From Candidatus Hodarchaeota archaeon (GTDB lineage Archaea; Asgardarchaeota; Heimdallarchaeia; Hodarchaeales; Hodarchaeaceae), in the NCBI GenBank assembly GCA_029856365.1, contig JAHQWW010000036.1:1-28925 (forward strand): a DNA stretch of 28,925 nt. The letters are read 5' to 3'. Below, piece by piece: positions 148 to 21,485 of this stretch. The notes below the pieces were generated by a model that saw only the letters and a list, made by a program, of their open reading frames with translations, was not told where the DNA came from and made no database searches. Every line of letters begins with the position of its first letter. The first letter of the stretch is position 1. Position numbers and translations under genes: made by a program.

Positions 148-930
148 GTGATGAGAATGGTCTTAAATATAGCTCACCGAGGAGGAGCAGGTTTAGCTCC
201 TGAAAATACTCTTTCATGTTTCGAACAGGGTATAATCTTTGCAGACATGGTAGAATTTGATGTTCAACCTTCTAAGGATTCCCAGCTCATGGTTTATCAT
301 GATCGTAATGGGATAGAAAGAACAACTAATGGGAAAGGAAAGGTACCAGATCTTACATTTGATTACCTAAGATCCTTAGATGCAGGGAGCTGGTTTGATC
401 AAAAGTTCAAAGGAGAAAAAATTCCTACTCTCTCAGAGGTATTAGAAAGAATATCATCCACAAATATCCAATATAACATAGAGTTAAAGTACTATAATCC
501 TAAATCGAGTTGGTTTGAAGATGAGATCATTAGTTTTGTTAAGAATTTCAGAATAGAAGATAAAACAGTGATAACAACAAGATATGTTGAAAATATTATC
601 AGATTAAAAGAAATAGATCCCACTATTGATTGTGCGTTGCTACAGAAAGAACGTACACCGAATGAATACTTCAAGCTTTTATTAGAATTAGATCTGAATA
701 CTGCTCAGATACGTTCATCAGCACTGGAACCTTCTTTCTTGAATATATGCCATGAAAAAGGCATTAGAGTGTTTTATTTTTATGCAGATGAACCAGATAA
801 AATGAAGAAAGTGATTAATCTAGGGGTGGACGGGATATTAACTAATTATCCTGATCGACTGAAGCAGATCCTCGCCAAGGAGTTCGAAGAATCTTCATCA
901 GCGCTCGAGGAACTTCATGGTAAGTTCTAA
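148..930 (+). CDS. Glycerophosphodiester phosphodiesterase (GDPD/UgpQ family)
   Basis: Motifs IAHRG, APENTL, VEFDV, VYHD, NIELK and GVDGILTNYPD. The true start may be ATG 157. The last ~18 codons derive from a duplicated antisense vWA fragment. Confidence 0.93.
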   Translation: MMRMVLNIAHRGGAGLAPENTLSCFEQGIIFADMVEFDVQPSKDSQLMVYHDRNGIERTTNGKGKVPDLTFDYLRSLDAGSWFDQKFKGEKIPTLSEVLERISSTNIQYNIELKYYNPKSSWFEDEIISFVKNFRIEDKTVITTRYVENIIRLKEIDPTIDCALLQKERTPNEYFKLLLELDLNTAQIRSSALEPSFLNICHEKGIRVFYFYADEPDKMKKVINLGVDGILTNYPDRLKQILAKEFEESSSALEELHGKF

Positions 931-997
931 CGACAGTATAACGTCCGCTTCCAAGGCAGGGTAAATCTTTACAGGCCTGTTAACCCCACTTCTTACC
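875..997 (-). pseudogene. Degenerate direct duplicate of the 3' end of the vWA gene (copy of 1406-1528)
   Basis: Ungapped manual alignment gives 105/123 identical nt. The minus strand reads GKKWG*QACKDLPCLGSGRYTVVRTYHEVPRALMKILRTPW, with an internal stop. Confidence 0.9.
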
Positions 998-1402: not shown

Positions 1403-2473
1403 CTACCAAGGAGTTCGAAGAATCTTCATCAGCGCTCGGGGAACTTCACGGTAAGTTCTAACAACAACGTAGCGTCCGCCTCCAAGACGAGCTAAGTCTT
1501 TACAAACACGTTCACCCCACTTCTTACCTCCTGGTAAATTCAATACGTGCAATTTTTCAAATTTCCTACATAAGTAACGTGGGTCATCTCCTTTATTATA
1601 AGCTCCATCGGTAAGCAATATTGCCCATTTGAATCGTGTTTTTAAGCTCTGTAATTGTAATGCCCCCATTCTCAATGCGTCTTCAATATTTGTATATCCT
1701 ACTGCTTCTAAATCTAGTATCTTATCCATGATGTCTTGTATTGCTAGTTCATCTTTGATACCTTTGATCAAGAATGCTTTAGTATTGAATGCAATGACCC
1801 CAAATTTATCGTGTCGCATTGAATAAGCCATAACCGCAGCAGATAAAGCTGCATTAATATTACGTTCCCCCACCATTGAGCCACTAGCATCTAAGATAAG
1901 TACTCCATTCTTTTTCCTTTCACGTCGTTCGATACCAACGATATCACTTCTTCTCAAGGCAGGGATACCAGTTGGATATTTTTCCAACAATTGATCCATG
2001 GTTGCATCTAAGTCAAAATCACTTTCAGGTTGATATTCACCTCGGACTGGTAAGTCTCCTCTTAAGCCCTCTGAAGCAATTCGGAGTGATAATTTTAATA
2101 TAGACATCCGTGTTAGTCGTTTCAAGATCTTCCTACGTTTGATATCAATGATGCCTCGCATAACAAAATAGAGACGTGGGGTATAAATTCCACCTGTTCC
2201 TGCGACACGACCTAGTGAGACGAGTCTTTCGGTATTCAATGTATTTGAAACAGCATATTTATTGATTTTAGCTAATGACATTAAAGCAGGAAGATTCTCA
2301 TGTTCAATAGCGGATTCTGTTAACCGTTCAATACTAGCTAAGTCTAATTTATCGAGTTTTGGTAAAGTGTCCCCTGCAGCAATAGCAGCTTCAGCGAGGT
2401 CCTCTAGCTTTAATCGGCCAAAAAGACGTATATTTTTATCGTAATCCCGAGAGTTTGCTCGGGATTTATCTAT
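1403..2473 (-). CDS. von Willebrand factor A (MIDAS) domain protein, probably translated as the -1 frameshift extension of the upstream AAA+ ORF (track start 2281 is likely internal)
   Basis: MIDAS residues DASGSM, GYTN and LLTDG. The frame stays open for 64 codons upstream of ATG 2281 to the AAA stop, with no ATG/GTG/TTG. Confidence 0.85.
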   Translation of the reverse strand: MDKSRANSRDYDKNIRLFGRLKLEDLAEAAIAAGDTLPKLDKLDLASIERLTESAIEHENLPALMSLAKINKYAVSNTLNTERLVSLGRVAGTGGIYTPRLYFVMRGIIDIKRRKILKRLTRMSILKLSLRIASEGLRGDLPVRGEYQPESDFDLDATMDQLLEKYPTGIPALRRSDIVGIERRERKKNGVLILDASGSMVGERNINAALSAAVMAYSMRHDKFGVIAFNTKAFLIKGIKDELAIQDIMDKILDLEAVGYTNIEDALRMGALQLQSLKTRFKWAILLTDGAYNKGDDPRYLCRKFEKLHVLNLPGGKKWGERVCKDLARLGGGRYVVVRTYREVPRALMKILRTPW

Positions 2474-2479
2474 AAAAAA
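2443..2479 (-). promoter_or_regulatory. Candidate -1 programmed ribosomal frameshift signal (slippery heptamer plus stimulatory hairpin)
   Basis: Minus strand CG[T TTT TTA] TAGATA AATCCCGAG-CAAACT-CTCGGGATT. Heptamer at 2479-2473, 6-nt spacer, perfect 9-bp stem 2466-2458/2451-2443. Confidence 0.75.
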
Positions 2480-3339
2480 CGATCTTCGTCCCCTGAGAGA
2501 ATCGCTTCAACAATTTCATGAATTACGTCTTCAATTGGTCTCTCTACTCCATCTTCCAATTCAATTTTGGTAGCGAGAGTCATGATAGACATTTCAGAGA
2601 CCGTTTCTAGATTTAAACTTTTTACAAGGTTCAATATTTTTGCAAGATCAATTGCTCCACGAATTGAGGAACCTCGCCGTATTTCAGGATGTTTACGCGT
2701 TGCTCTAGCTATTTTTGTTGCTGTTTCTGAAATTAATCTATCCTCCGTTCCAATACCCGATTTTTGTTCAACAATATCGAGCTCTTCTTCATAAGCTTGA
2801 TGTTCTAATTTAATCCAGACAAATCGATCTTTCAATGCCTCTGAAAGGACAGTCGTCCCAATATATGACTCTGGATTTTGTGTTGCTACAACAAGAAAGC
2901 CATCTGATGCCCTAATAACTCCTAATTTCGGTAATATCAATAATCCTTCATCCATAGAAGGAAGTAACACGTTTTGGGTCCCCTCAATTAATCGATTAGC
3001 TTCATTAATGAATAAAATAGATCCGTTTTTCATTGCTAACGTTAATGGACCTGGAACGAAAGCATCCCAAATCCAACCTTTTTCAACTACTAAAGGAGGT
3101 TCAAAATGACCAACTAATTTGCTTTCAGTGTAACGTTCATCACCATCAATCCGAATGAAACCCTGGTCGAAGTATGCGGCAACTGCATGAGCTAATGTTG
3201 TTTTCCCAACACCTACAGGACCTTCAATGATGATATGTTTACCTGCTTGCTTTCCTAGGATGAGCTTACGGAGCGAACTGTATCGCCCTACAACTCCAAA
3301 TTTTTCTTGAATTTCTGAAATTGCTTTCTCAATGTCCAC
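2470..3339 (-). CDS. MoxR-family AAA+ ATPase (CbbQ/NorQ/CoxD-like)
   Basis: Walker A GPVGVGKT, FVPGPL, Walker B variant LFINEANR, VVATQNP, ALKDRF, sensor-2 SIRG. GTG start preceded by AGGTGA. Confidence 0.92.
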   Translation of the reverse strand: MDIEKAISEIQEKFGVVGRYSSLRKLILGKQAGKHIIIEGPVGVGKTTLAHAVAAYFDQGFIRIDGDERYTESKLVGHFEPPLVVEKGWIWDAFVPGPLTLAMKNGSILFINEANRLIEGTQNVLLPSMDEGLLILPKLGVIRASDGFLVVATQNPESYIGTTVLSEALKDRFVWIKLEHQAYEEELDIVEQKSGIGTEDRLISETATKIARATRKHPEIRRGSSIRGAIDLAKILNLVKSLNLETVSEMSIMTLATKIELEDGVERPIEDVIHEIVEAILSGDEDRFL

Positions 3340-3658
3340 AAAGTGTCACCTATATATTATTGAAAGGAACTTTAGCATTCTAATCAAGGTAATTAATCCA
3401 AATAGATAGCATGCTCTCTCAATCTCCTTTTCTAGATGAGAACAAATGATTTAACTATCTATTTTATTAAACCAGCAAAGGTACACCTACTCTGCTTTCA
3501 ACTTAATTATTTTGCTCTTTGTATCGTAGTTATTGTCATGAATTCATATAGAAATAATGATTTTATAGCTACTAAAAAACAATTAAAGTCAGAAAGAAAG
3601 TTATAGTGCAATAATTTCTATTCTTAGAAACTGTTTTACTGTTTTTAGACAAAAAAAG

Positions 3659-3795: not shown

Positions 3796-3816
3796 TTTTT
3801 TTAATGCCAATGAGAA

Positions 3817-3901
3817 TGCGGGGAGTGGGATTTGAACCCACGAACGCCTACGCGACTAGGATCTGAACCTAGCTCCTTTGACCTGGCTGGGAGACCCCCG
3901 C
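3817..3901 (-). tRNA. tRNA-Leu(CAG)
   Basis: Acceptor GCGGGGG/TCCCCGC-A, anticodon arm CTAGG-TTCAGAT-CCTAG, long variable arm, GTGGG-TTCAAAT-CCCAC. Confidence 0.93.
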
Positions 3902-4091
3902 AAATTGCGTCAGGAATTGAATGGGTTATACATATTTTAGGTATATTAAAGTAAGACAACTAAATATGATTGTGACATGATTCCAATTTTTCTTTTTGAT
4001 TGTACTTGCTCAAATAATAAAAGGTGAACATCGAGGAAGATTTATTAAATATGATTATAATTTTTCTCTTGTAGTTAAATAATTCAGAGAA

Positions 4092-6836
4092 ATGAAACCA
4101 ATGAGCAGAAAACCGAGAAAAACAACCGAAGCAATGCGACAGTATTACAATATTAAAGACACTCACAAAGATACTATTGTGTTTTTTCAATTAGGAGATT
4201 TTTACGAAACATTCAATGAAGATGCTAAAATAACTTCTAAAACCCTCGATATAACGCTTACATCAAGAAGTATGGGGGCAAGTGGAGAGAGAATTCCATT
4301 AGCTGGGGTTCCTGTTAAAGCCATTGATTCATACTTAAAAAAAATGGTCGATCAAGGGTATAAAATAGCGATTGTTGATCAATTAGAAGATGCGAAGAAT
4401 GTTCCTTCAGGGAAAATTGTAAAAAGAGGAGTTACGCGTGTTGTAACACCAGGAACAGTTTTTGAACCTTCAATATTGGATAAAGACACTAATAATTTTC
4501 TTTTAAGTTTGGTTGCTAATGAAAAAAAGCAGTCAATTGGCTTATCATTCGTTGATATCTCCACAGGGGAATTTTTAATTGCAGAATTCAAAGAAAATGT
4601 AGTTGATAATTTTCAGGATGAATTTTCTCGTTTCAGTCCTCGAGAAGTAATTTTTCCTGACATTCAACTGAAAGGAAAATTACAAACAACATTAGAAAAA
4701 ATAATCACCTCTACTTCCCAGACCGTGGTATATCCTGTAAATGAAACTCTTTTCAATTTCGATACAGCCCAACAAACGCTATTGAATCATTTTGAAGTTA
4801 GATCATTGGCAGGGTATGGCTGTGCTTCAATGGTTGAAGGGATTCGAGCCGCAGGTGCGATCATTTCATACCTAAATATGCTTAAAAAAGACTATCCGAG
4901 TAATATATCGTCTCTTCGAACTCTAGACAATCGTAACTACTTAATACTCGATGCTAATACTCAAAGGAATCTTGAAATCACTGAGAATGCTTTCGATGGA
5001 AAGGTAGAAGGTAGCTTACTTTCTATTTTTACTGATATTAATACTAGCATGGGTGTTAGATTACTACGTAGGTGGTTATTGCAACCTTTACGTAATACAA
5101 GCGTAATTAACGATCGTTTAGATGCAATAGAACAGTTCAAGCAGGATTTATCTGTAATACAAGAAATAGCTGACCTACTTTCTAATATAGCTGATTTTCA
5201 AAGATTAGTAGCCAAAATAAAGTATCACTCTGTAAATGCTAGAGACTTAATCTCTCTGAGAGACTCATTGATTTTTTGTTTAGATATAAAGACTTTCTTA
5301 AAACAAAGTGGATTAAAAAGCTCTATTTGTCATAGAATCAATGATTTTAACGTTTCAGATCTTATCAGTGTTATCGAACTGATAGATAGCGGAATACACG
5401 AATCACCACAAGCCTCAATTCGTGACGGGGGCATTATAAAGCCAAGCTATAATGAAGATTTACTTCAATTATATGAATTAAAGAACAACCAAAGTGAAAT
5501 ATTACAAGAGATTGAGGATCAGGAGCAAGCACGGACATCCTTCAATATTAAATTGGGTTATAACTCAATTCATGGATATTATATAGAAGTCACAAAAGCT
5601 CAATTACGTGATGCAGGAGAAGAGGCGATTCCATCTGAATATGTACGACGACAAACATTAGTTAATGCAGAACGTTTTATCACCCCTGAATTGAAAGAAA
5701 TAGAAGAAAAAATATTGAATGCAGATGAAAGGATAAAAGAACTAGAATATCAATTCTTTTGCGAAATTCGTGAAACAATTTCCCAAAAAGTTGCTACAAT
5801 TCGTAGTTATTCCGAATTAATCGCTGAATTGGATGTATTAATTTGTTTCTCCTTTACAGCACTTAAAAATGATTTTTGTAAACCTAACTTCATTGAGAAA
5901 CCAATTATCTCAATTACTGATGGTCGTCATCCTGTAGTCGAACATTTACAAAAGGAGACTGGGTTCGTTCCTAATAGTGCTAATTTAGGGAATAAGGAAC
6001 TTCACATAATAACTGGGCCTAATATGTCTGGGAAATCTGTTTTCATTAGACAAGTGGCCCTTATAGTGTTAATGGCTCAAGCTGGGTCATATGTTCCCGC
6101 AAAGACATGTAAATTAGGAATAATAGATAAAATTTTCACTCGTGTTGGTGCATTTGATAGACTAGCGTTTGGGCAATCTACTTTTATGCTTGAGATGCTT
6201 GAAACAGCGCATATACTCAATAATTCTACTCCAAATTCTTTAATAATTCTAGATGAAGTAGGACGCGGGACTAGTACCTTTGATGGATTATCCTTAGCAT
6301 GGGCAATTGCAGAACACATTGCTAAGGAGAAAAAAAGTAAAACACTATTTGCTACACATTATCATCAGCTCAGCGAATTGGAAAATCATTATTCGACTAT
6401 CAAAAATTTTCATCAAACCGCTAAAGTACGCAATGGGAAGCTTGTCTTACTTTATAAAATTAAGGAGGGCTCGACTGATCATTCATTTGGAATTAGCGTT
6501 GCTAAAATGGCTGGAATTCCAAAAACAGTTATTATTGAGGCTCAAAAGAAACTATTAGATCTAGAGGCAACCTCTGATACAACAGAATTACCTCGTCATA
6601 AAGGAAGAACAGAATCTCAACCTAGACAGCTATCCCTTGCTGAAGCTCTTTCAAAAAGCGTTGGTCAACAACAACTAGAAAGAGAAATAAAAAATCTCAA
6701 GTTTGAGATTCTTGCATTCTTAAAAAACTATACGGATATTGATATCAACTATAAAACGCCAGTAGAAGCACTTCAACAACTTGGACAATTAGTCAAAGAT
6801 ATGCGAGAATTAGGAAAGAAGATCCAGGAGAAGTAA
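4092..6836 (+). CDS. mutS: DNA mismatch repair protein MutS (MutS1)
   Basis: Mismatch-binding GDFYE motif, VTPGT, GRHPVVE, Walker A TGPNMSGKS, STF, ILDEVGRGT, FATHYH. Confidence 0.97.
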   Translation: MKPMSRKPRKTTEAMRQYYNIKDTHKDTIVFFQLGDFYETFNEDAKITSKTLDITLTSRSMGASGERIPLAGVPVKAIDSYLKKMVDQGYKIAIVDQLEDAKNVPSGKIVKRGVTRVVTPGTVFEPSILDKDTNNFLLSLVANEKKQSIGLSFVDISTGEFLIAEFKENVVDNFQDEFSRFSPREVIFPDIQLKGKLQTTLEKIITSTSQTVVYPVNETLFNFDTAQQTLLNHFEVRSLAGYGCASMVEGIRAAGAIISYLNMLKKDYPSNISSLRTLDNRNYLILDANTQRNLEITENAFDGKVEGSLLSIFTDINTSMGVRLLRRWLLQPLRNTSVINDRLDAIEQFKQDLSVIQEIADLLSNIADFQRLVAKIKYHSVNARDLISLRDSLIFCLDIKTFLKQSGLKSSICHRINDFNVSDLISVIELIDSGIHESPQASIRDGGIIKPSYNEDLLQLYELKNNQSEILQEIEDQEQARTSFNIKLGYNSIHGYYIEVTKAQLRDAGEEAIPSEYVRRQTLVNAERFITPELKEIEEKILNADERIKELEYQFFCEIRETISQKVATIRSYSELIAELDVLICFSFTALKNDFCKPNFIEKPIISITDGRHPVVEHLQKETGFVPNSANLGNKELHIITGPNMSGKSVFIRQVALIVLMAQAGSYVPAKTCKLGIIDKIFTRVGAFDRLAFGQSTFMLEMLETAHILNNSTPNSLIILDEVGRGTSTFDGLSLAWAIAEHIAKEKKSKTLFATHYHQLSELENHYSTIKNFHQTAKVRNGKLVLLYKIKEGSTDHSFGISVAKMAGIPKTVIIEAQKKLLDLEATSDTTELPRHKGRTESQPRQLSLAEALSKSVGQQQLEREIKNLKFEILAFLKNYTDIDINYKTPVEALQQLGQLVKDMRELGKKIQEK

Positions 6837-6840
6837 TCGA

Positions 6841-8655
6841 ATGGCCAGAATTCGTCTATTAGACCCAATTTGTATCAGTAAAATTGCTGCAGGTGAGGTA
6901 ATTGAGCGTCCAGCGTCCGTTGTCAAAGAATTAATTGAAAATGCCATTGATGCGTCGGCTAAAGAAATTAGAATTGTAATTAAAAACGGTGGGAAGGATC
7001 TAATTGAGGTAAAAGATAATGGGACAGGGATCCCTTCAGAAGATCTTCCTTTAGCCATCAAACGTCATGCTACTAGTAAGATTGGCTCTGAACATGATCT
7101 AGATTCAATTTCTACAATGGGTTTCCGTGGAGAAGCCTTATATTCGATTGCTTCCGTCTCAAGATTCTCTATTATTAGTCGAACAGCCAAAGATGAACTA
7201 GCGAAATGTATCACGGTAGAAAGTGATCTGGAAAAATGTCAGATTTCAGATGAAGTGATGGCCTCACCAGGAACCCTTGTTCGAGTACGTGATCTGTTTT
7301 TTAATTTCATTGTACGACGGAAATTCCTGAAAAAAGCCTCAGTCGAACAATCCCACATCTATGAGGTTGTTGCTCAAAACGCTATAGGACATCCTCAAAT
7401 TGCTTTCACTTATATTGTAGATGAGGAAATTGAATTTCAAACTATGAAGAGTAAAAGTCATTTATCTGCTATTAAAGAAACATTTGGTCAAGAATTAGCT
7501 GGATCTCTTCTAGACATTGGTATAGTTCAGCGCGATAATGTCCTAATTCATGGGTATCTTAGTAAACCTGGACATCATAAGCGAAACAGGAAGTATCAAC
7601 ACTTTTTTTTGAATAGAAGACGTATTTCTTCCAAAATTTTTCAATCCGCTTTAGAAGAGGGATATGGTTCATACCTGATGAAACGCGAGTTTCCTGTTGC
7701 ATTCCTGTTCTTGGAACTCGATCCTCAATACTTTGATGTAAACATACACCCTCAAAAACGAGAAGTCCTTTTCTATAATGAAAAAGAGTTAATGATAGCA
7801 ATCAGTTCAACCGTGGCACATTGTCTCAAAACCCAAGACATAGTTCCATACCTTAAATCACGAACAAAACGAGAGAGACCGACGAAACTAGCACTTGGAG
7901 AAGCGAATGCAGTAACAGCATCATCAACACACCGAGATATCGGGCTATTGGGGAAAAAACAACAAATAAGTATTCACCCTGACGAGAAATCCTCTGAGTT
8001 ACCGACTTCTTTAGAAAGTACTGAAACCCAACTATTTGAGGTTTCAATCGAAAAACAGGCAATAAAAGATTTTTTCGAATCAGATTTAAAATTCCGAGGT
8101 CCTCTCGGAAAAGAATTCTTGCTACTTGAAGATTTATCAAATCATGACTTAATCGTCCTTGATTTCCATGCGGTACACGAGCGAATTAACCTAGAAAAGT
8201 TTACAGCGACGTTTAAAGCTAATAAAGTGAGATCTCAAACATTCCTTAAACCTTTTCGATTATTTTTAACTCCTGAGCAGCGAATACTCATAATGGATTC
8301 TCTCTCTCATCTTAACAACCTAGGATTTGATTTTAGAGTTGCAAAAGGAGATAAACAGAAGATTGAAGTCTTTGCTATTCCTAGAATTCTTGGAAAAACC
8401 GATTTAAAACAATTCTTGAATGAATTATTAGATACTCTTCCTGAGAAGGTTATTGGGGATCAAATTAATGAGATTCTGAGTTTAATAGCATGTCATGCTT
8501 CTTATCGCGCAGGAGACGTTTTATCGTTCCAACAAACAAAAGATCTTTTACAACAACTCGTACAAACCGAAAATCCTAATATCTGCGCTCACGGTCGGCC
8601 AACGTATATTAGAATACCATATCAAGACTTTTTAAAACAAGTAAGAAGAATATAA
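6841..8655 (+). CDS. mutL: DNA mismatch repair endonuclease MutL
   Basis: IAAGEVIERPASVVKELIENAIDA, DNGTGI, RHATSK, GFRGEAL, DVNIHPQK. Endonuclease motifs DFHAVHER, ACH and CAHGRP. Confidence 0.97.
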   Translation: MARIRLLDPICISKIAAGEVIERPASVVKELIENAIDASAKEIRIVIKNGGKDLIEVKDNGTGIPSEDLPLAIKRHATSKIGSEHDLDSISTMGFRGEALYSIASVSRFSIISRTAKDELAKCITVESDLEKCQISDEVMASPGTLVRVRDLFFNFIVRRKFLKKASVEQSHIYEVVAQNAIGHPQIAFTYIVDEEIEFQTMKSKSHLSAIKETFGQELAGSLLDIGIVQRDNVLIHGYLSKPGHHKRNRKYQHFFLNRRRISSKIFQSALEEGYGSYLMKREFPVAFLFLELDPQYFDVNIHPQKREVLFYNEKELMIAISSTVAHCLKTQDIVPYLKSRTKRERPTKLALGEANAVTASSTHRDIGLLGKKQQISIHPDEKSSELPTSLESTETQLFEVSIEKQAIKDFFESDLKFRGPLGKEFLLLEDLSNHDLIVLDFHAVHERINLEKFTATFKANKVRSQTFLKPFRLFLTPEQRILIMDSLSHLNNLGFDFRVAKGDKQKIEVFAIPRILGKTDLKQFLNELLDTLPEKVIGDQINEILSLIACHASYRAGDVLSFQQTKDLLQQLVQTENPNICAHGRPTYIRIPYQDFLKQVRRI

Positions 8656-16706: not shown

Positions 16707-19700
16707 TCACGCAATCCCAAAATCACTTGGTTTCATCTCATTTTGAACAAAATTCAAACATTTTTTATATAATCCATTGAATTCCTCATCAAAAACCCAT
16801 TTTAGACTAGCAATATCAGCTAAAACGGGAAGAGAAGTCATTTTTTCAAGAGGAACTCCTGCTTTATGGTTTTCACGCATTTTATGATAAAATTGTATGA
16901 TTATGTGGAGCATTTTGTACTGCTTATCTAAAGCACAGTAAGAGTCTTCGGAATAAGCGTTTTGCTGGAGGAAATCTTCACGAATCATTTTAGCAGCCTG
17001 AAGAATGATTTTTTCTGATTCTGGTAATGCATCGGGGCCTATAAGTTGTACAATCTCTTGTAACTCTTTTTCTTTCTGAAGAAGTGCCATTGACTCCTCT
17101 CTGCGCATGTTAAAGTCTGATGCAATATTTTTATGATACCAATGTGCTAATGAATCGATATAAAGGCTATAACTCTCCAACCAAGAGATAGCGGGGAAGT
17201 GTCTGGAACGTGCTAATGGATAGCTTAATGCCCAAAAAACTCTTACTGTCTTCAGGGTATTTTGAGTCACTGGTTCAGAAAAATCTCCTCCTCCAGGAGA
17301 AACTGCTCCGACAGCGGAAATACTGGCTTTGTGACCAGAAAGTGTTTCAATTCTCCCAGCTCGCTCATAAAACTCGGCTATTCTGGATGCAAGATAAGCA
17401 GGATAACTTTCTTCTCCAGGCATTTCCTCCAAACGACCTGAAATTTCTCGAAGAGCTTCAGCCCAACGGCTTGTGGAATCGGCCATTAAAGCGACATCAT
17501 ACCCCATATCTCGATAATATTCTGCTATAGTAATCCCCAAATAAATAGACGCCTCACGTGCGGCAACAGGCATATTAGAAGTGTTTGCAATAAGAACAGT
17601 TCGTTGCATTAGCTTCTCACCAGAACGTGGGTCTTCTAGATCTGGGAAATCCTTTAAAACCTCAGCCATCTCGTTACCACGTTCTCCACACCCGACATAA
17701 ACAACTACAGTTGCATCAGACCATTTGGCTAATTGATGTTGAGACACAGTATTGTGTAATGTGAAAGGTAGTATTCCACCAACAAAATTATGTGTTATAT
17801 CAACAGTAAGATCATAAACAGGTTTTGTTTCTTCGATGAGTTCGATTGATATTATTTTGTCAAAATAAACTTCTTGTGAAAGGCGGATAACAGCATCAAG
17901 TGTTTTATTTGTTGGGATATTAATTTGATATTCCTCTAAAGTGCTTGAAATTTGTTGTAAGGTTGATAGTGTAGGAGTTTGCCCTTTCTTAGTGTAATTA
18001 CTCAATCGAATACCTTTACGCTGTCGAAGTACATCATAACCAGCATTTTCTTTGACTTCATGGTGTAATCGAACCAGAACTTGATTACCTATTGGTACAA
18101 CGTCGCGACCAACGAAATATTGTGTATTCTTTGCAGCATAAGAATAGAGCGGGATTAATTTGCTGTATTGATGAACCTCAGTAAATTTAAATATTCCTGC
18201 AAGGAGCTCAGCCTCTTTTCCGTCAAGGTAATAGATAAAAGAGTTTCCTTTTATCTTTACTTTATAAATCAGACCTAGACGTGTCAATAAATATCCTAAA
18301 TCACTAAAGAGGTTCTTACTAACAGTACTAAACTCGATTGTGTATCGATAAAAAGATCCATCTCCTGCAAAATATCCTGAAAGGAAATGTACTAATAAGT
18401 CATCTGAACCCCTTCGGATTGCTTGAGGTATCCTCACATTGTATGTTTTTTTCTCTTTTGGAATTCCGAGATAATAAAGGAATTTTTTAAGCGATTCGTT
18501 TCGAATACACGCGTAGGGAGTCTTTTCTGAATCGTCTTGACCGATTTCAACGTCTAAGTCAAATATAATTTCAGTTAAAATAGAAAATCGTTGAAGAATA
18601 TCATCATTATTATTATAAAGATAAATCCCTCCTTTTTTACCTTTTATATGACCATCAGCAACAAAAAGTCCAAACCATTCAGCTAATTCTTTTGTGAATG
18701 AATTGGGTATCTGAAATGGATCTGATTGACGTTCTGATTTTACAAGTTTTACAGGTATTAAGGGAGCTTTTGCTAATTTGGCAAGGTTCTTTAGGAAGTT
18801 CAACGTAGGTTTATTTCTAAGCAACCAATATCCAATGAAAACATCATAAGAAACATTTAATTTTACAGCTATTTGCTTTAAGGTCATTTTTTGCCTAAGG
18901 TGCTTGATTAGTCCTATCATTTTTTGCAATGCTTGCTGATCAATTACTCGTAAAGAGAGATCAACATCATAACAATTGAATTTTGTTTCCTCGCCCTCGA
19001 TACTTATCTTTCGAGGAACAATAAGATTGTCTCCAATTTTTAGATCTTTTGCTGCTGTTTCTTCAATGGATTCGCCATCGAATTTGAAGAGTTTATGGAT
19101 AGGAGTGATTTTAACAACCCTTCCACTTCTTGTTTTAATTTTCACAATAGCATTTGTACTTCCACGATAAACGTGAGTGGCTTTCTGCGAGCTGTATTTT
19201 GTTCCGTCAAATGATATCACTGATAAGGGTCTTATTAGATGAACTAATGTTTCAGTTTCTGAGTCTTCCTCGATTATGCCATTATTCTCCATATGATAAT
19301 CATATATATGCTTGATCGGGATACTATCACCCGATTCTAAAAGAACAGGCGTATCACCTGTTACACACTTCCCTGTCCCAAATCCTCCTGGTATAGCAGC
19401 CACACCCCCTTTAGCGATCGGGAAAAAAGTGTCGTATATACGTTGGCCTGTAATTAGTGGAATATTTGCTTCCAATTTTCTTTTAAATGGACGTGCGTTT
19501 CTAACAGGCCATGTTTGCTTCATTGTTATTGGTAATGCAAATGGGTATTGTCCTTCAGCATCAATTTGAGCAATTGTTTCTGATATTGAATATTTATCAG
19601 GAGCAGCGATATCAGTAACTTTTGCAATATTTATATCAGGAGGAATCATTATTTTGTGAGTTACCATTCTAGATTCTCGTACTTCTCCAATATGCGAACC

Positions 19701-20117
19701 ACCATAGACTGTATCTCCTTTAGTTACTAATGGTTTAAAATCCCATTTCTTATCCAAGTCTAACGGAGCAGATGTGAGACCACGAGTAATGAAATCACCT
19801 TCTTCTAATTGAAGAGCTGGCAAAGGTCGCTGGATACCATCATAAATTCGGGTAATTAACCCTGGACCGAGCTCTGCGCTTAGAGGTTTCCCTGTCGCTA
19901 CTGCTTCCTCTCTTGGTTTTAAACCAGTAGTCTCTTCATAAACTTGAACAGTTGAGATGTGTCTATTTCCAGATTGATTGATTCGGATAATCTCTCCAAT
20001 TAGCTGTTCTTCACCAACCCTAACGATTTCATAAAGTTGAGCACGATTCATACCACTAATTTCCACTACAGGGCCAGAAATTCTTACAATTTTACCTATT
20101 TGAACTTTTGAGGTCAA
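16707..20117 (-). CDS. atpA: A/V-type ATP synthase subunit A with a 539-aa intein (mature protein ~597 aa)
   Basis: [22 protein letters not shown]-loop GGFGTGK|T split by the intein, [35 protein letters not shown]. Confidence 0.96.
17751..19367 (-). mobile_element. Intein with LAGLIDADG homing endonuclease in AtpA
   Basis: Begins CVTGDT after GFGTGK, block B TPIHKLF, LAGLIDADG-like motifs WFGLFVADG and [10 protein letters not shown], block F VYDLTV, ends LHN before Thr+1. 1617 nt. Confidence 0.95.
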
Positions 20118-20348
20118 AGCAGAATCCTTCTGATTTAATAAGATCTAGCTAATTAACAGCTGATATGATCACTTGGAAACTAGGAGACATTCTTACGAAA
20201 AGGGTTATTGCGAACATTAGTAAAGAAATTAAAAATCTTATTTTAATTTGATTGAAATACCTTCATGATCATGATATAAGATTAGTGTACTTAGAGAGAA
20301 AACTCAGGTTATTAAAAATGATTCAATCTATGGTAATTTTATTCATGG

Positions 20349-20543
20349 GAGGTCATCAACTAGCTCGTTGTCGAAGCTAGTCTCCATTGTGAGGGCTATA
20401 ACCCGACAACCTCTATTACATCAGCAGTAAGAGTCTTTGGGAGTGCTTTTATCAGGATATTGTAACCCACTGCACTTATTCCCTGAATTAGCTGATTGAT
20501 CCCTGAAATTATCAGTTAAAAACCTTTTAAGGGGCCTGATAAT
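20349..20543 (-). ncRNA. Candidate structured RNA or leader upstream of atpA, family not recognised
   Basis: Several helices that pair fully only on the minus strand through G-U pairs (GAGGUUGUC/GAUGACCUC, GCAGUGGG/CUUACUGC), plus ACUAGCU/AGCUAGU and AUUAUCAG/CUGAUAAU. GC-richer than flanks, no ORF in the track. Confidence 0.4.
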
Positions 20544-20885
20544 CAATTCATTTTCATTCTACTTTTATTTTCTCTCTCCAACACTTTCTTGCTCTTGTTC
20601 TGTTATCTCCTGTTTTTTTCACACTTCATTTTATTTATTTGAGACGAAAACAATCTTTTCAACTTGGTTTTACATCTTTTAACACTATTTCTTTTAATAT
20701 TAAAGACATATAAGTCCTCGTCGTGGTTTAGATCTACAATAACGTGAAAGTCTCTGTTTGGGGCAACAAAGAGATCAAAAGGACGGAGTATCGAACAATT
20801 ATTGTTTTTAAGAGCCTCATTTTAATCCCCCAAGAAAACAATTTTATTAAAGAAAAAAATAATAAATTCAGTTTATATTTCTCCT

Positions 20886-21485
20886 GTGGAGACTCTCAAG
20901 ATGACGGCTGAAAAGATGGATATAACTCCAGATTCTTTGAAGAAAGTGGCTAAAAGAGTAAAAATAGAAGAAGAGCTTAAAAACCTGAAAATTAAAATAG
21001 AAAAGCTCAAAATTCGTGCTGAGATTGAAGAGATTGATGTTAGTGAAGAAATAAAGAAACTTGATCAAGAGATCGCGAAATTAACCAAGGACAGGAAGGA
21101 ACATGAACCTTTAGAGTACCCTTTTTTAAATCTTATAAACAAACAAACGAAGCTAGAAGAACGTTTAAAGAAGTTAAATGATAAAAAAGGTGAGATTCAA
21201 GCTACAGTTTATGAATCTCTTAAAAATGAATATTTAGGAGAGAAAGAGGCAATAACACAACAAATTAATCAAGCTACAGATCAATTAAGAGAAATGAAAC
21301 AGGGGGCTTCAAAGGGAGCTCAGTCCTTGAAATATAGTATTGAAGAGCTTTCTGTCAGGAAAGAAATTGAGGAAATACCAGAAGAAGTTTATAATCAACG
21401 GATCTCAAATCTAAAGAGCGAACTGGCACAATCAGAGGAATTAAAAGAAGCTGTTGACTTTTTGTTAAAAATGGTGAGGAACTAA
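20886..21485 (+). CDS. Coiled-coil protein, possibly CdvA-like
   Basis: E/K-rich heptads. RLKKL..KKGEIQATVYESLKNEY and EELSVRKEIEEIPEEVY resemble CdvA-like coiled-coil repeats (recognition from memory only). Confidence 0.6.
   Translation: METLKMTAEKMDITPDSLKKVAKRVKIEEELKNLKIKIEKLKIRAEIEEIDVSEEIKKLDQEIAKLTKDRKEHEPLEYPFLNLINKQTKLEERLKKLNDKKGEIQATVYESLKNEYLGEKEAITQQINQATDQLREMKQGASKGAQSLKYSIEELSVRKEIEEIPEEVYNQRISNLKSELAQSEELKEAVDFLLKMVRN

Follow-up and report, generated by a model that had tools for sequence, protein, structure and literature searches.

A probable programmed -1 ribosomal frameshift between a NorQ/CbbQ-like AAA+ ATPase and its vWA partner in Hodarchaeales

In contig JAHQWW010000036.1 of a Candidatus Hodarchaeota archaeon (Asgard archaea, class Heimdallarchaeia, order Hodarchaeales; assembly GCA_029856365.1; positions 1 to 28,925 were analysed and are called the window), an open reading frame (ORF) for a MoxR-class AAA+ ATPase runs directly into a von Willebrand factor A (vWA) frame that lacks a convincing start of its own. 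How is the second frame translated, and do the two ORFs make up two genes or one? The original prediction, made from the letters of the window, placed a programmed -1 ribosomal frameshift at this junction (1403-3339, minus strand). According to the comparative analysis described here, the two ORFs very probably form a single gene in which programmed -1 frameshifting would give rise to a 289-residue ATPase and a 645-residue ATPase-vWA fusion.

Architecture of the junction

All elements of the locus lie on the minus strand. The ATPase ORF (2470-3339) defines the 0 frame, starts with GTG, and encodes the short product of 289 residues, a NorQ/CbbQ-like MoxR-class protein with Pfam AAA_5 and AAA_3 matches over cut-off. 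It is preceded by a Shine-Dalgarno-like AGGTGA (3346-3351), the GGTGA core of which is kept in all seven relatives checked. The 3' end of the ORF reads CGT TTT TTA TAG, so that a slippery heptamer U_UUU_UUA (2473-2479) abuts the stop codon. A 6-nucleotide (nt) spacer that holds the 0-frame TAG follows (2467-2472); its length is kept among relatives, while the stop itself varies between TAG, TAA, and TGA. Next comes a predicted stimulatory hairpin of 9 base pairs with a 6-nt loop (2443-2466). U_UUU_UUA followed by a stem-loop is the viral-type -1 cassette of HIV-1 gag-pol.

The vWA frame is -1 relative to the ATPase frame, is open from 34 nt upstream of the ATPase stop, and contains no ATG, GTG, or TTG before the ATG at 2281, which has no AGGTGA- or GGTGA-like motif ahead of it. 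The 64 start-less codons (2282-2473) are predicted to form a disordered linker (about residues 1-18), followed by helices that belong to the helical domain at the N terminus of the vWA part. The remainder of the frame (1403-2281) is the annotated 292-residue vWA gene with Pfam VWA_2 and VWA_CoxE domains. Heptamer, spacer, hairpin, -1 frame, start-less stretch, and the contrast between an AGGTGA before the ATPase and none at ATG 2281 had all been named in the original prediction and were all present on re-reading. The prediction also depended on a run of six T instead of seven. The assembly has six (2479-2474) followed by A at 2473, and contigs from four public sequencing runs, one of them possibly the source sample, span the junction without an indel in the run.

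In the proposed mechanism, ribosomes would initiate at GTG 3339, and the majority would terminate at TAG 2472 to yield the 289-residue ATPase. A fraction would stall at the hairpin 6 nt farther on with tRNA-Phe and tRNA-Leu placed on UUU UUA. Re-pairing of both tRNAs one base back would skip the stop and allow 356 more codons to be decoded, giving a 645-residue ATPase-linker-helical-vWA chain with the junction DRF(L/F)IDK. By analogy with the 6:1 ratio of NorQ to NorD (PMC9976466), the two products may assemble as a mixed ring with about one vWA adaptor, and slip efficiency would then govern the ring-to-adaptor ratio.

Conservation of the signal and coding of the start-less frame

The vWA part has an orthologue in 77 of 83 genomes at class level and in 187 of 300 at phylum level; with the alignment query it was not found in the Asgard families f11 (0/76) and f8 (0/4). 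About 130 junctions were extracted. One locus, L097, was left out of the counts; its ATPase gene seems to be broken well upstream of the junction, probably by an assembly error or as a pseudogene in a low-coverage genome. The -1 phase is shared by 110 orthologous junctions, which come from 18 Asgard families. It is likewise seen in closed chromosomes, some from cultured strains, and in all 14 genomes of family f27, including those of Promethearchaeum syntrophicum MK-D1 (ATPase QEE14636.1) and Lokiarchaeum ossiferum (UYP46123.1), which are in culture and carry A_AAU_UUU. Their predicted fusion has about 660 residues, and the trans-frame peptide in MK-D1 would be ENFSITAE.

A slippery heptamer in the ATPase register stands at the ATPase end in 101 of the 110 junctions (77 strict XXX-YYY heptamers, 23 G_GAU_UUU, and one A_AAC_CCU). 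The strict test covered the last three sense codons of the ATPase, or slightly farther back in one locus, and the same heptamer test is passed by 1.7% of windows within these ATPase genes and by 4.7% of long-ORF ends in this genome. U_UUU_UUA in particular ends only three of 2457 long ORFs. The heptamer differs by lineage (U_UUU_UUA/C, G_GAU_UUU, A_AAU_UUU/C, G_GGU_UUU, A_AAC_CCU) with the register always kept, and the conserved property is therefore tRNA re-pairing and not a single sequence. Closer to the present locus, T_TTT_TTA is identical in all 21 Hodarchaeales genomes that have the junction, which are 19 of the same genus (this one included) and two of the same order. The codons CGT TTT TTA are invariant over 16 genomes of the genus; elsewhere, only 12 of 365 columns with an invariant amino acid keep one codon (none of 47 Leu, none of 28 Arg, one of 14 Phe). 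The slip signal is conserved beyond what the protein needs.

The perfect 9-base-pair hairpin folds with a z score of -4.4, and no shuffle out of 200 of the 46-nt context was as stable. Across 18 genomes, 92% of the cells in the alignment of the stem are paired, five pairs are invariant, two have two-sided changes, and the loop varies. The hairpin-core codons TCC and CGG are frozen in the 16 genomes of the genus, and the 6-nt spacer falls inside the range of 5 to 9 nt set for a stimulatory structure.

Elsewhere in the phylum the downstream element takes another form. A kink-turn pattern, defined as a canonical stem, a 3-nt RNU bulge, and tandem GA pairs about 8 nt past the slip site, is matched 3' of the slip site, mostly at 8 nt, by at least one locus in each of 13 families against a background of 2.1%. 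A recurring GA...GAUGA motif underlies it, and in family f14 the pattern occurs in permuted orientation in 16 of 16 cases. It is matched in none of 19 loci of the present genus, so that a kink-turn was rejected for this locus, and it is likewise absent in f2, f3, f4, f9, and f13. A search of the junctions against Rfam gave no match, and the titles and abstracts covered by a literature search contain no apparent report of an effect of L7Ae or kink-turns on frameshifting. The likeness to the HIV-1 signal claimed in the original prediction stands for the heptamer and spaced plain hairpin of this locus, but the plain hairpin is lineage-specific, and many other Asgard families carry the kink-turn-like element.

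The start-less stretch evolves as protein. In its codons 13-64, all of which lie upstream of the annotated ATG, the variation at codon positions 1, 2, and 3 is 17, 2, and 52, and 87% of the differences are synonymous in the -1 frame versus 11% and 3% in the other two frames. This agrees with the protein-like character ascribed to it from the outset. In the AlphaFold model, residues 1-18 form a disordered linker and helices 23-33 and 45-57 reach confidence (pLDDT) values of 81-92; a start at ATG 2281 would delete both helices. Among 12 aligned sequences, the Met of ATG 2281 is present only in the genus (f1) and in one f2 genome. Public annotations begin the vWA orthologues at four different points, giving proteins of 292, 314, 334, or 336 residues. 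ATG 2281 most likely encodes an internal Met, and vWA genes in well over 100 Asgard genomes would then carry wrongly annotated starts.

Natural in-frame fusions, which the original prediction had named as something to look for, exist and are co-linear with the present pair. Among the longer (fused) homologues (at least 300), the closest, P0121-P0124, have 647-655 residues as compared to 645 in the predicted product, with identities of 61-66% in the AAA part and 65-68% in the vWA part, and they nest within the Hodarchaeales clade in a quick tree (support 100). The model of a natural fusion has the same linker and helix layout as that of the present locus. An alignment of two of the fusions with L247, a Hodarchaeales locus of the frameshifted type, needs a single 1-nt gap, which lies at the junction. 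L247 keeps U_UUU_UUA and, at equal spacing, a hairpin of other sequence, and its ATPase stop lies about 37 codons farther on, behind conserved vWA-frame residues. These findings show that such a fusion exists as a true protein architecture, and they speak against reinitiation at the stop.

Other possible ways to reach the vWA frame

Three other explanations were weighed against the programmed frameshift. In one, two separate proteins are made, and the vWA part is begun by termination-reinitiation at a codon that overlaps the ATPase stop, or else at a near-cognate codon, for example ATA 2473. The common NTGA overlap would likewise yield a -1 phase, an ATG or TTG does overlap a TGA stop in 13 of 110 junctions, and purine-rich GGAGG stretches lie 3' of the stop in several families. 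Yet the overlapping codon is neither ATG nor TTG in the other 97 (ATA in 37, CTA in 31, TTA in 18, GTA in 8, CTG in 3), and TGA is the rarest stop (16/110). Reinitiation has no need of a heptamer, which is nonetheless frozen at synonymous sites, and in L247 heptamer and hairpin stay put although the stop is far downstream. A stable hairpin 4 nt past the supposed start would probably impede initiation. Family f4, in which the vWA frame is +1 in 11 of 11 genomes, offers an ATG 10-13 nt past the stop in 10 of the 11. However, this ATG is missing in one genome, and coding selection in the +1 frame begins upstream of it: over the five codons past the UUU UUU CGN motif of this family, 83% of the differences are synonymous in the +1 frame as compared to 0% in the 0 frame. 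CGG codons are seldom used elsewhere in these genes. Separate initiation is considered improbable.

A slip of the RNA polymerase, with a U inserted in the T6 run and the hairpin acting on the polymerase, is slightly less probable still. Such slippage is an accepted alternative at homopolymer sites (PMC3711429), and a T6 run followed by a hairpin occurs here and in f2, f3, and f5. But the runs cited for realignment are of more than seven A or more than eight T (PMC3711429). In the majority of Asgard families the site has a run of no more than four T (G_GAU_UUU, A_AAU_UUU) or no T run at all (A_AAC_CCU), and it always keeps the ATPase codon register, a feature that matters for tRNAs but means nothing to a polymerase. 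An artifact of sequencing or assembly, or a fused gene in decay, would be conceivable since homopolymer runs are prone to errors and in-frame fusions are known. The four runs without an indel, the same site in 21 Hodarchaeales genomes, the -1 phase in closed chromosomes including those of cultured strains, and strong purifying selection on both the ATPase and the vWA half leave this explanation a negligible probability, and an assembly error or pseudogene was excluded on account of the independent genomes.

Several observations weigh against programmed frameshifting or restrict its scope. Coding in the -1 frame from close to the stop suits an early separate start equally well. Nine of the 110 junctions have an imperfect heptamer or a U_UUU tetramer only, and kin are not independent, which reduces the effective sample to about 18 families. 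Within the genus, the hairpin shows modest covariation, its score being reached by 16 of 500 shuffles, and no clear structure was seen downstream of the slip site in families f3, f9, and f13. The slip site is lost in the three close-fusion junctions that were read, and several fused homologues are without any slip site; a fixed product ratio is perhaps not essential everywhere, and some lineages may be able to do without the short product. Finally, that the slip takes place on the ribosome is itself deduced from sequence comparison. With these points taken into account, programmed -1 frameshifting is still regarded as the highly probable explanation, and orthologues keep the -1 phase, heptamer, coding linker, and hairpin on which the original prediction was to be judged.

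Domain identity, relatives, and neighborhood

The ATPase has Walker A (GPVGVGKT, 3199-3222), sensor I, Arg finger, and sensor II, which together with AAA_5/AAA_3 assign it to the MoxR class. Instead of the canonical hhhhDE, its Walker B reads ILFINE (3001-3018) with Asn replacing Asp, and the N-E pair is invariant in 54 fused homologues; the Asn may point to altered ATP or Mg handling in this ATPase family. The vWA domain adjoins the ATPase and has an intact metal-binding MIDAS motif, DxSGS (1877-1891), with GYTN and TDG beyond it; the D, S, G, and S are invariant in 61 orthologues. The closest folds are NorQ/CbbQ, found with the ATPase half of a natural fusion, and NorD for the vWA half. The best structural matches are therefore in the NorQ/NorD, CbbQ/CbbO, and CobS/CobT pairs (PMC9976466; bioRxiv 10.64898/2026.10.09.757910), where a MIDAS-bearing vWA also adjoins the AAA. 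In those pairs, however, the partners are separate genes, whereas here the vWA part lacks its own start and would be attached to a ring subunit, and the Asn in Walker B sets the present ATPase apart. The complex is most likely a MoxR-type remodelling or cofactor-insertion chaperone.

The original prediction further likened the tethered arrangement to midasin/Rea1, and this resemblance proved to be generic. Both place an AAA domain with an H2 insert and a MIDAS domain on one chain, but midasin has six AAA domains in a chain of more than 4700 residues and the present protein has one. Midasin leads the PDB sequence search because its six domains are summed; its best single domain scores 30 bits versus 46 for NorQ. 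A special relationship to midasin was rejected.

The nearest functional precedent is the frameshifted chlD gene of Mg and Co chelatases (PMC3711429; PMC9227772; review PMC5009743), in which frameshifting yields an AAA+ subunit of clade 7 as well as an AAA-vWA fusion and which likewise comes in -1 and +1 versions and as plain fusions. The precedent invoked in the original prediction is thereby confirmed in the literature (PMC3711429; PMC9227772). It includes archaeal members in Methanocaldococcus and Methanococcus (PMC3711429; PMC9227772; PMC5009743), reaches 10-63% frameshifting in Escherichia coli reporters (PMC3711429), and occurs in some genomes without the large subunit CobN/ChlH (PMC9227772). 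A search of the present genome, which is 84% complete, gave no CobN/ChlH. JGI labels the present vWA part 'Mg-chelatase subunit ChlD'. The ATPase, in contrast, is NorQ/CbbQ-like and scores 29 bits with the ChlD model, 25 with the cobaltochelatase model, and 19 with the ChlI model, as against NCBIfam cut-offs of 500, 779, and 467. It was therefore classed as chlD-like logic in a NorQ/CbbQ-like family. The site here is also U-rich and not A_AAA_AAR, and the signal occurs in the greater part of a single archaeal phylum. A second AAA+/vWA family would in this way follow the one-gene-two-subunits logic known from chlD.

The signal shares an X_XXY_YYZ heptamer, a short spacer, and a 3' structure with HIV-1 gag-pol and Saccharolobus fucA1 (PMC8211752), but it belongs to a chromosomal gene, and its conservation crosses family boundaries. 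Most Sulfolobales have fucA1 in frame, and a 2021 review names it as the only reported archaeal -1 case, which bears out the rarity stressed in the original prediction; the same review counts it as the single demonstrated chromosomal -1 frameshift of archaea, which were never systematically screened (PMC8211752). In a literature search of incomplete coverage, no publication describing this Asgard AAA/vWA frameshift was found. The junction is conserved in most families of the archaeal group nearest eukaryotes, and since P. syntrophicum and L. ossiferum, both available in culture, have it, frameshifting by Asgard ribosomes on eukaryote- and virus-type signals is directly testable.

Relatives may reach the same two products by other routes. 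UUU UUU CGN is present in all 14 relatives with a +1 phase (L023-L025, L123, L126, L130, L133, L134, L138, L143, L146, L198, L207, L208), which belong to f4, f22, and a more distant paralogue in f23. It contains the +1 motif UUU_CGN of influenza PA-X and amalgaviruses (PMC5052127), a match that applies to these relatives and not to the present locus. In f24 (Njordarchaeales by the name of P0126), all four in-frame fusions keep UUU UUU CGN where the ATPase part ends, and a +1 stop follows 2-10 codons later. In the incomplete f24 genomes, a search for a separate close ATPase gene gave none. Six more fused genes (two Njord-like, four of one Bathyarchaeia clade) have their sole in-frame UUU UUU C at codon 287-293. 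In all, ten fused genes (L210-L213, L240, L242-L246) keep UUU UUU C at about codon 287-300 and have an out-of-frame stop 2-10 codons on. A slip there is a candidate route to a free short ATPase, as in the truncating frameshifts of dnaX and copA (PMC3711429; PMC5009743), which the fused relatives, and not the present locus, resemble. At UUU UUU CGN, the direction of the slip could be +1 or -2, and for some fused genes also -1. The Njord-type fused gene also lies directly 3' of cdc48 with a gap of 7-16 nt (L245:78-4449, L246:256-4639), a possible tie to protein quality control.

Within the present genome, a paralogous AAA/vWA pair (contig C19, about 19283-21150; L234:384-2248, plus strand) has an ATPase with 36% identity and a -1 junction, at which two heptamers (U_UUU_UUC, A_AAA_AAA) are accompanied by a GC-rich hairpin. 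This paralogous pair is -1 in all 20 loci examined, most of which have A_AAA_AAN and a GC-rich hairpin. As a tentative reading, which we hold to be possible but somewhat short of probable, a need for both products may be as old as the Asgard ancestor and may have been rewired in at least three ways: by a -1 slip, by a +1 PA-X-like slip, and by fusion with a truncating slip. The -1 slip would then be driven by a plain hairpin here and by an L7Ae-type kink-turn in many other families. If true, the system would stand as the first archaeal frameshift in a chromosomal gene to be phylum-wide, and it may respond to a protein.

The usual 16S 3' end motif had no match resembling an rRNA gene in this genome, and a scan for sigma-70 promoters and terminators remained at chance level, the sigma-70 model not being applicable to archaea. 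The locus is flanked by a tRNA-Leu(CAG) gene (3816-3902, minus strand), a glycerophosphodiesterase (GDPD) gene (148-930, plus strand), and mutS-mutL (4092-8655, plus strand), a context that is conserved within Hodarchaeales only and offers no clue to the client. About 400 nt downstream of the vWA frame, a degenerate copy of its last 41 codons (875-997, minus strand; about 80% identical, with an in-frame TAA) overlaps the 3' end of the opposite-strand GDPD gene, and a similar short extra match is present in genome G021.

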